The translations under genes and the position numbers were made by a program. The notes beneath the pieces were generated by a model that saw only the letters and a program-made list of their open reading frames with translations, did no database searches and was not told the DNA's origin. Below, piece after piece: positions 43,772 to 46,574 of a DNA stretch of 64,000 nt; the first letter of the stretch is position 1; every line of letters starts with the position of its first letter. This DNA is from Corallococcus sp. RDP092CA (GTDB lineage Bacteria > Myxococcota > Myxococcia > Myxococcales > Myxococcaceae): the NCBI RefSeq assembly GCF_041903675.1, contig NZ_JAYESI010000001.1:32643-96642 (forward strand), read 5' to 3'.

Positions 43772-46222
43772 TCAGCGCGCCTTCTTCTGGGACCGCGCCC
43801 GACTCGGCTCGGACGCCTTCTCCGAGGCAGCCTTCGACGGACCACCGACGAAGGCCGCCAGGTGCTTGCCAGTCAGCGTCGACTTCGCCGCCACCAGGTC
43901 GGACGGCGTGCCTTCGAACACGATCCGTCCGCCGTCATGGCCCGCGCCCGGCCCCAGGTCGATGATCCAATCCGCGTGCGCCATCACCGCCTGGTGGTGC
44001 TCGATGACGATGACGGACTTCCCGGAGTCGACCAGCCGATCCATCAGCCCGAGCAGCTGCTCGAGGTCCGCCAGGTGCAGGCCGGTGGTCGGCTCGTCGA
44101 GCACGTAGACGCCGCCGTCCGTCCCCATGTGCGTCGCGAGCTTGAGGCGCTGTCGCTCGCCACCCGACAGCGTGGTGAGGGGCTGGCCCAGCCGCAGGTA
44201 GCCGAGCCCCACGTCGGCCATGCGCTGGAGGATGGCGGACGCCGCGGGCGTCTGCGCCTTGCCCGCGCCAAAGAAGCCGACCGCGTCCTTCACGGGCAGG
44301 TCGAGCACCTGCGCGATGTTGAGTCCACCGAGCTTGTACTCCAGCACCGACGCCTGGAACCGGCGTCCCTCGCAGTCCTCGCAGACCGTGGTGACGCCGG
44401 CCATCATCGCCAGGTCGGTGTAGATGACACCGGCGCCGTTGCAGGTCGGACAGGCGCCCTCGGAGTTGGCGCTGAACAGGGCGGGCTTCACGCCGTTGGC
44501 CTTCGCGAACGCCTTGCGGATCGGCTCCAGCAGGTCGGTGTACGTCGCCGGGTTGCTCCGCCGCGAGCCGCGGATCGGCGTCTGGTCGATGGACACCACG
44601 CCCTCCCGGCTCCCCACCGAGCCGTGGATCAGCGAGCTCTTGCCCGACCCGGCCACGCCCGTCACCACCACCAGCACGCCGAGCGGGATGTCGACGTCGA
44701 CGTTCTTCAGGTTGTGTGTGCTGGCGCCGCGCACCTTCAAGACGCCGGAGGGCTTGCGCACGGATGGCTTCAGGGTGGCCCGGTCGCTCAGGTGACGCCC
44801 GGTGAGCGTGTCACTGGCGCGCAGGGCCTCGACGGTTCCTTCGAAGACCACCTCCCCACCGGCGGTGCCAGCGCCAGGGCCCAGGTCGACGACGTGGTCG
44901 GCGATGGCGATCATCTCCGGCTTGTGCTCGACCACGAGCACGGTGTTGCCCTTGTCTCGCAGCCGGAGCAGCAGGTCGTTCATCCGCTGGATGTCGTGCG
45001 GGTGCAGGCCGACGGTCGGCTCGTCGAAGACATAGGTCACGTCGGTGAGCGACGACCCGAGGTGGCGGATCATCTTGGTGCGCTGTGCCTCACCGCCCGA
45101 CAGCGTGCCGGTGGGCCGGTCGAGGCTGAGGTAGCCCAGGCCGATCTCCACGAACGAGTCGAGCGTGTGTCGCAGCGACTTCAGCAGCGGGGCGACGGCC
45201 GGCGCGTCCAGGCCGCGCACCCACTCGGCCAGGTCGCTGATCTGCATCGCGCAGGCGTCCGCGATGTTGATGCCCTTGATCTTGGAGGACCGGGCGGCCT
45301 CGCTGAGCCGGGTGCCCTTGCATTCGGGGCAGGAGGTGAACGTGACCGCGCGCTCCACGAACGCCCGGATGTGGGGCTGCATCGCCTCCACGTCCTTGGT
45401 CAGGAACGACTTCTGGATCCGCGGGATGAGCCCCTCGTAGGTGAGGTTCATCTTCTCGACCTTCACCTTGGTCGGTTCCTTGTAGAGGAAGTCGTGCAGC
45501 TCCTGCTTGGTGTACTTGCGGATCGGCTTGTCCGGGTCGAGGAAGCCCGAGGCCCCGAAGATGCGCACGAGCCAGCCGTCCGCGGTGTAGCCGGGGATGG
45601 TGATCGCGCCCTCGTTGAGCGACTTGTTGGCGTCGTACAGCTGGGTCAGGTCGATGTCGCTGACCGTGCCCATGCCCTCGCACCTGGGGCACATGCCGCC
45701 GGTGACGTTGAAGACGCGCTTCTCGGTCTTGCCCTCGCCCTTCTCGACGGTCATCTCACCGGTGGCGCGGACGGACGGGACGTTGAAGGAGAAGGCGTTG
45801 GACGACCCGATGTAGGGCTTGCCCAGGCGGCTGAACAGCACGCGCAGCATCGCGTTGGCGTCGGTCGCGGTGCCGACGGTCGAGCGGGAGTTGGCGCCCA
45901 TGCGCTCCTGGTCGACGATGATGGCGGTGGTCAGGCCCTCCAGGACATCGACCTCGGGGCGGCCCAGCGTGGGCATGAAGCCCTGCACGAACGCGCTGTA
46001 GGTCTCGTTGATCAGCCGCTGCGACTCCGCGGCGATGGTGCCGAAGACGAGCGACGACTTGCCGGAGCCGGAGACGCCGGTGAACACGGTCAGCCGCCGC
46101 TTGGGCAGCTCGACGCTGACGTCCTTCAGGTTGTTCTCGCGGGCGCCCTGGACGCGGATCAGGTCATGGCTGTCCGCGGGGTTCGAACGGCTCAGCGCGG
46201 TGCTCTTGTCGGAGGACGTCAT
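43772..46222 (-). CDS. UvrA-like ABC ATPase, class II paralogue (short, 816 aa).
   Basis: Two ABC modules (GVSGSGKSSL, GVAGSGKSSL) with UvrA-type Zn fingers (CPRCEGMG, CPECKG). The size suggests it lacks the UvrB-binding insertion (inferred from length, not aligned). The ATG overlaps the ArsR stop (ATGA). Confidence 0.8.
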   Translation of the reverse strand: MTSSDKSTALSRSNPADSHDLIRVQGARENNLKDVSVELPKRRLTVFTGVSGSGKSSLVFGTIAAESQRLINETYSAFVQGFMPTLGRPEVDVLEGLTTAIIVDQERMGANSRSTVGTATDANAMLRVLFSRLGKPYIGSSNAFSFNVPSVRATGEMTVEKGEGKTEKRVFNVTGGMCPRCEGMGTVSDIDLTQLYDANKSLNEGAITIPGYTADGWLVRIFGASGFLDPDKPIRKYTKQELHDFLYKEPTKVKVEKMNLTYEGLIPRIQKSFLTKDVEAMQPHIRAFVERAVTFTSCPECKGTRLSEAARSSKIKGINIADACAMQISDLAEWVRGLDAPAVAPLLKSLRHTLDSFVEIGLGYLSLDRPTGTLSGGEAQRTKMIRHLGSSLTDVTYVFDEPTVGLHPHDIQRMNDLLLRLRDKGNTVLVVEHKPEMIAIADHVVDLGPGAGTAGGEVVFEGTVEALRASDTLTGRHLSDRATLKPSVRKPSGVLKVRGASTHNLKNVDVDIPLGVLVVVTGVAGSGKSSLIHGSVGSREGVVSIDQTPIRGSRRSNPATYTDLLEPIRKAFAKANGVKPALFSANSEGACPTCNGAGVIYTDLAMMAGVTTVCEDCEGRRFQASVLEYKLGGLNIAQVLDLPVKDAVGFFGAGKAQTPAASAILQRMADVGLGYLRLGQPLTTLSGGERQRLKLATHMGTDGGVYVLDEPTTGLHLADLEQLLGLMDRLVDSGKSVIVIEHHQAVMAHADWIIDLGPGAGHDGGRIVFEGTPSDLVAAKSTLTGKHLAAFVGGPSKAASEKASEPSRARSQKKAR

Positions 46223-46548
46223 GGGTCCATCTTCTCCAGCAGTTGTTCGAGGCGATCGACGTGCTCCGACCAGAACGCGCGGTAGTGCGCGATCCAGTCG
46301 ATGAGCGGCTTCAGCCCGCGCGGATCCACCCGGTAGTAGGTGCAACGTCCTGCACGCCGGCCCTTCACCAGACCGGCGCCCTTCAAGGCCGCGAGGTGCT
46401 GGGAGACCGCGGGCTGCGAGATGTCGAATCGCGCCGTGAGGTCCTTCACCGCCGCTTCGCCACGCGCGAGTGACTGGAGAATCGCCCGGCGGTTCGGGTC
46501 CGCCAGCGCCTGGAAGAGCTTGTTCTCGGCCACGGCCACGCGCTGCAT
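46219..46548 (-). CDS. ArsR/SmtB-family transcriptional regulator.
   Basis: LADPNRRAILQSLARGEAAVKDLTARFDISQPAVSQHLAALKGAGLV winged-helix HTH. Confidence 0.85.
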   Translation of the reverse strand: MQRVAVAENKLFQALADPNRRAILQSLARGEAAVKDLTARFDISQPAVSQHLAALKGAGLVKGRRAGRCTYYRVDPRGLKPLIDWIAHYRAFWSEHVDRLEQLLEKMDP

Positions 46549-46556
46549 GCGCGACG

Positions 46557-46574
46557 CATAAGCTGATGCTTATG
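46557..46574. promoter_or_regulatory. Candidate ArsR operator: inverted repeat CATAAGC-TGAT-GCTTATG, 9 nt upstream of the arsR start codon.
   Basis: Perfect 7-bp arms in a locally AT-richer promoter region. Confidence 0.4.

Follow-up and report, generated by a model that had tools for sequence, protein, structure and literature searches.

We describe a two-gene operon of the myxobacterium Corallococcus sp. RDP092CA, found in a 64,000-nt stretch of contig NZ_JAYESI010000001.1 (positions 32,643 to 96,642 of the forward strand; hereafter the window, numbered from its first letter), in which a gene encoding an ArsR-family repressor (arsR, 46548-46219, minus strand) overlaps a gene encoding a short UvrA paralogue (uvrA2, 46222-43772, minus strand). 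Our overall explanation, which we hold to be fairly probable, is that arsR and uvrA2 form an autorepressed operon whose second product acts against DNA intercalators in the manner of the self-resistance protein Ecm16. The two parts of this explanation carry different weights. According to the cross-species conservation described below, it is likely that ArsR binds an operator inside its own promoter and thereby controls both genes; an anti-intercalator function for UvrA2, argued by analogy, has about an even chance of being correct.

The arsR gene starts at an ATG and encodes a 109-aa repressor with an ArsR/SmtB fold, of the type associated with Rv2034 and with AHSA1 proteins, and the 816-aa product of uvrA2 is an Ecm16-type UvrA paralogue of class IIa. 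The plus strand reads TCAT at 46219-46222, which is ATGA on the coding strand, so that the TGA stop codon of arsR and the ATG of uvrA2 have two nucleotides in common. Because there is no further in-frame start codon before the conserved ADSHDLIRVQGAREN block, the overlapping ATG is the start of uvrA2. A GGAG sequence lies 11 nt upstream of the ATGA junction, within the 3′ end of arsR, and in relatives the identical junction sequence connects arsR with an AHSA1 gene. An earlier reading of the window, made from its letters and open reading frames (the sequence-only reading), had proposed this overlap between an ArsR-family gene and a UvrA-like gene, and the coordinates, on the minus strand, bear it out. 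Co-transcription of the two genes is very likely, judging from their arrangement.

The candidate operator is a perfect inverted repeat at 46557-46574, CATAAGC-TGAT-GCTTATG, with 7-nt arms separated by 4 nt; when the arms are extended to 10 nt, they remain 90% complementary. Its conserved 6-4-6 core, ATAAGC-ATCA-GCTTAT on the minus strand, occupies 46558-46573, and the comparison of orthologues adds conserved symmetric A/T outer positions that widen the site to 46554-46577 (minus strand). The palindrome had been noted as a likely autoregulatory site 9 nt upstream of arsR; its sequence and place hold, and the spacing is off by one at most, the distance to the ATG being 8 nt from the 7-mer arms and 9 nt from the 6-mer core. 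We compared 76 distinct orthologous upstream regions, drawn from a metagenome scan anchored on ArsR (80 loci from many soil metagenomes, 81-87% identity to the window's ArsR) and from genome loci, with duplicates of the window's own copy left out. The core ATAAG(C/T)-N4-(G/A)CT(T/A)AT is present in all 76 regions and forms a perfect 6-4-6 palindrome in 51 of them, and the outer symmetric positions are A(-4) in 75 and T(+19) in 74. The window's -35 hexamer, TTGACT (46578-46583, minus strand), is read directly from the sequence and supported by orthologue conservation; its counterpart is TTGACA in 69 of the 76 promoters, always 4 nt before the palindrome core. The start codon follows 9 nt past the core in 58 promoters and 8-11 nt past it in 16 more, with none detected within range in the other two. 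The resulting layout, TTGACA-N4-ATAAGY-N4-RCTTAT-N9-ATG, is near-invariant. The conservation of the site in every promoter, together with its match to the operator core of Rv2034 (see below), supports the suggestion that the palindrome serves autoregulation.

The same layout allows a promoter to be modeled. A predicted -10 hexamer, TATGCG (46555-46560, minus strand), lies 17 nt from the -35 hexamer and overlaps the right operator arm, and its TAT is invariant among orthologues because these three bases belong to the operator half-site. Six nucleotides separate the ATG from the -10 hexamer, a gap that leaves no room for a Shine-Dalgarno sequence. Since standard sigma-70 geometry places the transcription start site on the A of the ATG, the arsR mRNA is predicted to be leaderless, with transcription starting at or near 46548. 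Every ArsR-carrying locus examined contains exactly one operator site, just upstream of arsR and never before uvrA2, and of 80 loci anchored on UvrA2, just the three with ArsR contain the motif. Separate control of uvrA2 by an operator at its own promoter was consequently rejected.

Short inverted repeats are abundant in high-GC intergenic DNA (25 are found in 400 nt here), and the palindrome could in principle be a chance repeat or part of the terminator of the upstream lipoxygenase gene. However, the palindrome is AT-rich although the genome is 70% GC; a search for ATAAGY-N4-RCTTAT with at most one mismatch returns this single site in the 64-kb window and none in 100 dinucleotide-preserving shuffles; and the site is kept, in sequence and in register, in 76 of 76 orthologous promoters whose upstream genes differ. 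The lipoxygenase gene is moreover followed by a separate terminator-like GC hairpin about 150 nt further upstream (46719-46737, minus strand), with six GC pairs and then CTCGTGTTTC, a match by consensus only, which would insulate the arsR promoter from that gene. The conservation data effectively refute the chance reading. Control of the operon by LexA was also considered and rejected, as a search for the M. xanthus-type SOS box found none near the promoter, and its matches across the window were fewer than expected by chance.

The closest regulatory precedent is Rv2034 of Mycobacterium tuberculosis, an ArsR-like protein that represses its own gene and that, in DNase footprinting, covers a stretch of its promoter that includes CCGTAAGT-N4-ACTTACGG (PMC3338718). 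Its gene overlaps Rv2035, which encodes a polyketide_cyc2/COG3832 protein, and is followed by Rv2036 in one operon (PMC3338718). The Rv2034 operator, GTAAGT-N4-ACTTAC, and the window's operator have in common a TAAG-N4-CTTA core and a 4-bp spacer; with the adjoining bases the shared core reads TAAG(T/C)...(A/G)CTTA, and ATAAGT/ACTTAT variants occur among the window's orthologues. In both operons a gene for an ArsR-fold protein overlaps the next gene, and an inverted-repeat operator overlaps the promoter or start region. The orthologues of the window's ArsR nearly always precede an AHSA1/Polyketide_cyc2 protein; where enough sequence is available past arsR, almost every orthologous locus has the AHSA1 gene downstream. 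The window departs from this arrangement: about nine AHSA1 codons are left, the rest of the AHSA1 gene is deleted and a UvrA paralogue stands in its place. Other differences are the outer operator bases (A-TAAGC in the window versus CCG-TAAGT in Rv2034) and the additional role reported for Rv2034 as an activator of phoP and dosR.

COG3832-ArsR pairs, including Rv2035-Rv2034, have been computationally predicted to be toxin-antitoxin modules (PMC3968373), and the AHSA1 gene has been deleted from the window's locus. The operon could then be a toxin-antitoxin remnant, where ArsR persists as an antitoxin-like autorepressor after loss of the toxin and the linkage to uvrA2 is incidental. We regard this as very unlikely. 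The deletion is in frame and leaves uvrA2 with its ATGA coupling and initiation region, the arrangement has been kept in at least three Corallococcus lineages with ArsR identities of 93-100%, and uvrA2 lies tightly behind an arsR-AHSA1 module in several distant lineages. Our literature searches brought up no toxicity data for the COG3832-ArsR pair.

We now consider the signal that would release ArsR. The protein has a winged-helix HTH_5 fold (Pfam E=1.3e-16) and scores 94 bits against an NCBIfam 'metalloregulator ArsR/SmtB' subfamily model with a cutoff of 55, and the metal sensors SmtB, CzrA and NmtR are among its solved relatives in the PDB. On this basis it could be a classical metal- or metalloid-sensing repressor, in which case metal stress would induce UvrA2. 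Its nearest solved relatives, though, are uncharacterised ArsR-family proteins that share with it a C-terminal FW..DRL helix, and it carries neither classical set of metal ligands, alpha3 (CxC) or alpha5 (DxH...HxxE/H). The alpha3 metal-ligand motif of arsenic and cadmium sensors is ELCVCDL. By manual reading, the window's ArsR has EAAVKDL at this place, so that both alpha3 cysteines are missing; the alpha5 ligands D104 and H106 of SmtB correspond to P76 and G78, provided that the match is ungapped (query 5-78, SmtB 33-106); and its lone cysteine, Cys69, is 89% conserved in the family and not invariant. None of seven metals (Zn, Ni, Co, Cd, Pb, Cu and Mn) released Rv2034 (PMC3338718), a relative with the same operator type and an AHSA1 partner. 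Metal induction is very unlikely because the classical ligand motifs are missing and the characterised relative does not respond to metals. The window's ArsR, of the Rv2034 type, lacks these sites and normally has an AHSA1/SRPBCC ligand-binding protein as its partner, so that what releases it is probably an organic or hydrophobic compound, or a cellular effect of such a compound, and not a metal ion.

The second gene product belongs to a well-defined class. The best solved relative of UvrA2 is 7sh1_A (1317 bits, 75% identity over 775 aligned residues), and 7SH1 is the crystal structure of Ecm16, with which Streptomyces lasalocidi protects itself from echinomycin (PMC10192343). Two ABC ATPase modules are present (Pfam ABC_tran), with intact Walker A motifs at residues 49 (GVSGSGKS) and 522 (GVAGSGKS) and LSGGE signatures at 374 and 685. 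When UvrA2 is aligned to Thermotoga maritima UvrA, residues 22-137 match 4-119 and residues 170-533 match 268-628; in place of residues 120-267 of the T. maritima protein, a stretch of about 148 residues that forms the UvrB-binding domain, UvrA2 has a linker of 32 residues. The four CxxC motifs, at 178/298 and 591/614, correspond to zinc modules 2 and 3, with none before 178, and the pair C178xxC...C298xxC encloses 116 residues, an insertion domain flanked by zinc module 2. The protein falls below both curated UvrA equivalog cutoffs (TIGR00630, 695 versus 730 bits; NF001503, 685 versus 1147) and has no UvrB-binding domain, which sets it apart from canonical class I UvrA. M. xanthus has a canonical uvrA, induced by ultraviolet light, which hints indirectly that one may exist elsewhere in this genome as well. 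The alignment and the CxxC pattern confirm the earlier assignment as a class II paralogue without the UvrB-binding insertion and, on sequence features, match the class IIa definition of PMC9328131.

Ecm16 provides the functional analogy. Its affinity for echinomycin-DNA is about 5-fold that for free DNA, it requires its ATPase activity, and it functions in uvrA, uvrB, uvrC and uvrD mutants (PMC10192343, PMC9328131). Within class IIa, drug resistance that depends on ATPase activity and not on UvrB or UvrC is known for Ecm16 only. Its insertion domain sets drug specificity, and the insertion domains of DrrC and Ecm16 have 32% identity (PMC10192343); that of UvrA2, between C181 and C298, is 63% identical to Ecm16's. 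Both UvrA2 and Ecm16 contain two ABC modules, zinc modules 2 and 3 and the insertion domain, and both lack the UvrB-binding domain and zinc module 1. The differences are that the window's gene belongs to a myxobacterium and lies outside any biosynthetic cluster in the window, that it is preceded and overlapped by an ArsR gene, and that its product has about nine N-terminal residues from another gene and a basic C-terminal tail. DrrC (daunorubicin), MtrX, TrsM and TmrX likewise have the class IIa architecture and presumably an ATP-dependent, UvrB-independent action on drug-bound DNA, but they are located in producer clusters. The papers found in our literature searches mention no ArsR regulator for any of these four.

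Taken together, the proposed mechanism would operate as follows. The sigma-70-type promoter (TTGACT, 17 nt, TATGCG) would start transcription on the A of the arsR ATG or beside it and yield a leaderless bicistronic mRNA. An ArsR dimer bound to ATAAGC-N4-GCTTAT would fill the spacer between the -35 and -10 hexamers and overlap the latter, shutting off both arsR and the overlapping uvrA2, until a probably non-metal signal frees the operator. Translation of UvrA2 would start at the junction, with its GGAG and ATGA, that came from AHSA1. In the manner of Ecm16, UvrA2 would then recognise duplex DNA distorted by a bound intercalator or bisintercalator, and its ATP hydrolysis would clear the drug-DNA complex, or allow it to be tolerated, without UvrB or UvrC.

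A different role for UvrA2 is suggested by work on other bacteria. It may be an auxiliary sensor of DNA damage or a tolerance factor, serving as a minor back-up for nucleotide excision repair or as a modulator of mutagenesis, with ArsR answering general stress. Such roles have been proposed for the UvrA2 of Pseudomonas putida, Xanthomonas and Deinococcus; class IIa proteins of non-producers show small ultraviolet (UV) phenotypes and induction by radiation (PMC9328131); the 78-89% identity of the clade across phyla fits a conserved core function; and DinB_2 genes are found nearby in other Corallococcus strains. Against a repair role, UvrA2 has no UvrB-binding domain and would be unable to pass lesions to UvrB, Ecm16 failed to complement a uvrA mutant after UV (PMC9328131), and the SOS box is absent near the arsR promoter. 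The recurrent partners of UvrA2, VOC/bleomycin-resistance-fold proteins and SRPBCC small-molecule binders, moreover indicate xenobiotics rather than radiation damage. We consider a damage-tolerance role unlikely, though worth keeping in mind, and prefer the anti-intercalator function.

The junction between arsR and uvrA2 records how the operon arose. Orthologues of the window's ArsR are almost always followed, via the same ATGA overlap, by a 146-aa AHSA1/Polyketide_cyc2 (SRPBCC) protein, and then usually by a membrane protein of about 73 aa and often by a DUF1801 or VOC/glyoxalase protein. (In the ArsR-anchored metagenome loci L089-L168, the ~73-aa protein is a two-helix protein without a Pfam match, with DUF1801 next in 25 cases.) In Stigmatella, Pyxidicoccus, Nannocystis, a Kofleriaceae genome, a Gemmatimonadota genome and three metagenome contigs, uvrA2 stands at the end of such an operon, in the order arsR-AHSA1-(membrane protein)-(VOC)-uvrA2, and the spacing before it is often tight (an overlap in L146, 4 nt in L134, 12 nt in L005). 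The direct arsR-ATGA-uvrA2 junction is found in Corallococcus sp. EGB, in C. exiguus and in the window. The Corallococcus relatives are the closest proteins to UvrA2 (93-96% identity), and two Logan contigs encode a protein identical to the window's UvrA2 in the same gene order.

Comparison at the DNA level locates the fusion. The first nine or so codons of the window's uvrA2 (46196-46222, minus strand; MTSSDKSTA) derive from the AHSA1/SRPBCC gene. The 5′ end of Corallococcus uvrA2 reads ATGAC(C/G)TC(C/T)TCC; next comes GACAAGACCGC in L081, L085 and L086, an 11-mer identical to AHSA1 codons 5-8 of L083 and L004, and the window has GACAAGAGCAC at this place, with one base different. From AACCCCGCGGACAGCCA(T/C)GAC onward, the Corallococcus sequence is that of the uvrA2 5′ end of L083 (Stigmatella). 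The Corallococcus N-terminus, MTSSDKTAA..., resembles AHSA1 (MTLTDKTAPSQ...) and not the N-termini of other UvrA2 proteins. On the simplest reading, an in-frame deletion of about 0.5 kb in Corallococcus appears to have fused the first nine or so AHSA1 codons to uvrA2. The ancestral operon would have been arsR-AHSA1-(membrane protein)-uvrA2, the deletion would have taken the body of AHSA1, the intergenic region and any gene for a small membrane protein, and UvrA2 would have retained the translation-initiation region of AHSA1 along with those codons. A further rearrangement is seen in C. coralloides DSM 2259 (CP003389, L081 5937-6003), where just the last ~37 nt of arsR are left and the operator is gone; there, the chimeric uvrA2 is intact, behind a DinB_2 gene and beside a 5608-aa nonribosomal peptide synthetase/polyketide synthase (NRPS/PKS) gene.

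Scanning genomes with UvrA2 as the anchor gave 80 loci (L001-L080) at 77-89% identity, hosted by Actinomycetota, Acidobacteriota, Myxococcota, Gemmatimonadota, Chloroflexota, Deinococcota and a Dyella. The identity of the clade across these phyla far exceeds what vertical descent would lead one to expect, which suggests horizontal spread or very strong constraint. Upstream sequence was sufficient in 76 of them. Immediately upstream of uvrA2 on the same strand, 27 of the 76 have a small AraC-type (HTH_18) gene that is highly conserved, and at least 22 have a VOC/glyoxalase gene. From these neighbourhoods, UvrA2 typically appears tied to a dedicated local regulator and to small-molecule-binding proteins, with the regulator varying by lineage.

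The two genes combine into an AraC-VOC-UvrA2 cassette at about 2900-4000 in 17 loci (L006, L010, L011, L014, L015, L017, L020, L025, L028, L030, L038, L042, L050, L055, L058, L076 and L079), which come from Actinomycetota, a Dyella and a Dormibacteraceae genome and whose two upstream proteins are both highly conserved. These cassettes resemble the window's operon in encoding the same UvrA2 clade (78-84% identity) behind a small dedicated transcription factor, often with a VOC-fold protein, and two ArsR-type operons (L005 and L007) likewise include a VOC gene. They differ from it in their regulator, an HTH_18 protein like MarA and SoxS that is presumably an activator in place of the ArsR repressor, and in having no ATAAGY-type palindrome. 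The cassette appears to be uncharacterised. One Vitiosangium contig carries two UvrA2 copies (P0033 and P0036), about 90% identical to the window's protein, one of them annotated as DrrC.

The genes around the operon bear on the question of self-resistance. Nearby are genes for a lipoxygenase, an M1 aminopeptidase, a short-chain dehydrogenase/reductase, a LysR regulator and a biopterin-hydroxylase-like protein, and farther away are those for DNA polymerase I, a prolyl oligopeptidase, a major-vault-protein homologue and a GH15 enzyme. No NRPS/PKS cluster was found in the 64-kb window, where the largest listed open reading frame is 1003 aa and the scanned neighbours are unrelated enzymes. In actinomycetes, ecm16 and drrC sit in biosynthetic clusters, and class IIa UvrA genes are a marker of clusters that make intercalators (PMC10413001); accordingly, UvrA2 could guard Corallococcus from a DNA-binding metabolite of its own, and the C. 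coralloides DSM 2259 orthologue does adjoin its NRPS/PKS gene. The window, in contrast, has no NRPS/PKS gene within 43 kb on one side and 17 kb on the other, the flanking genes vary among Corallococcus strains, and operons of this type are found, among housekeeping-looking neighbours, in many unrelated lineages from soil and on metagenome contigs. Producer self-resistance is quite unlikely, and does not apply here because the gene lies outside any biosynthetic cluster in the window. The sequence-only reading, which took its self-resistance context from actinomycetes, was right about the class of UvrA; that context does not carry over to a myxobacterial host whose window is free of such a cluster. 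A defence against exogenous DNA binders remains our preferred function for UvrA2.

Several observations weigh against the proposed explanation. ArsR is found at only 3 of the 76 UvrA2 loci with enough upstream sequence, and the coupling of ArsR to UvrA2 is lineage-restricted because most genomes carry the UvrA clade unlinked to ArsR. C. coralloides DSM 2259 has uvrA2 without arsR; regulation by ArsR is dispensable there, as this strain lost arsR and kept uvrA2. The -10 hexamer is weak, matching three of six positions, and a consensus promoter scanner called no promoter in 43300-47000, so that the promoter model rests on cross-species conservation. The link between the window's ArsR and Rv2034 is drawn from gene pairing and operator similarity, and the Rv2034 site lies nearer its own start codon, with arms that are unlike the window's at the outer positions. 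No role has been established for the class IIa UvrA proteins of non-producers (PMC9328131), and 63% is a modest identity to Ecm16 for the very domain that sets drug specificity.

The operon's surroundings include several further features. A GC-rich hairpin right after the uvrA2 stop codon (43718-43758, minus strand) appears in both the minimum free energy and the centroid folds and is a possible, weakly indicated, operon end; the 141-nt region past the stop folds no better than its own shuffles (z=+1.5), and the hairpin has no clear U tract. Downstream of uvrA2, on the same strand, are open reading frames of 156 aa (43167-43637, minus) and 133 aa (42593-42994, minus); the gene calls on the Logan contigs include both, and a Pfam search gave no match for either; other Corallococcus strains have a methyltransferase at their place. 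The GC content of the arsR-uvrA2 cassette is 0.66-0.69 versus 0.70-0.74 in its flanks, a difference too small to argue for recent transfer, and that argument was dropped. Directly upstream of the arsR promoter, the bacterial lipoxygenase gene spans 46880-48862 (minus strand; Pfam Lipoxygenase, E=5e-61). The window also encodes a 758-aa homologue of the eukaryotic major vault protein (30863-33139, plus strand; Pfam Vault, Vault_2, Vault_3 and MVP_shoulder, E down to 3e-45), a deoxyhypusine-synthase-like protein of a type unusual in bacteria (51978-53267, plus strand) and a protein with a partial biopterin-dependent aromatic amino-acid hydroxylase domain, also unusual in bacteria (36253-37905, minus strand).

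Both gene families and the operator type already have characterised relatives. Literature searches found no ArsR linked to a UvrA-like gene, nothing relevant on UvrA2 under the term Myxococc-, and only incidental mentions of ArsR together with AHSA1 or SRPBCC proteins. Control of an Ecm16-like UvrA2 by a Rv2034-type ArsR, the cross-phylum promoter and operator consensus and the deletion that made the chimeric uvrA2 all appear to be undescribed. For the Rv2034-type ArsR family, the comparison provides a sharp cross-phylum consensus for operator and promoter, and the function of the cargo gene uvrA2 offers a hint at the family's signal. Class IIa UvrA genes serve as markers when mining for intercalator biosynthetic clusters, and the window's operon adds a caution, as a uvrA-like gene alone is no evidence that such a cluster is nearby.

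In non-producers, an Ecm16-like protein is found under dedicated local regulators, ArsR here and AraC-type proteins in many actinomycetes, and these regulators, together with the adjoining VOC and SRPBCC small-molecule binders, argue for an inducible defence against exogenous DNA binders. We tentatively suggest, as a possibility well short of even chances, that the widespread Rv2034-type ArsR-AHSA1 module is a sensor of DNA-intercalating or hydrophobic natural products, providing non-producer soil bacteria of several phyla with an inducible defence. If so, the cargo of the module would vary among a small membrane protein, DUF1801, a VOC/bleomycin-resistance-fold protein and an Ecm16-like UvrA2, and the Corallococcus deletion would be a natural minimal version of it, where ArsR alone is enough to control the UvrA2 effector.

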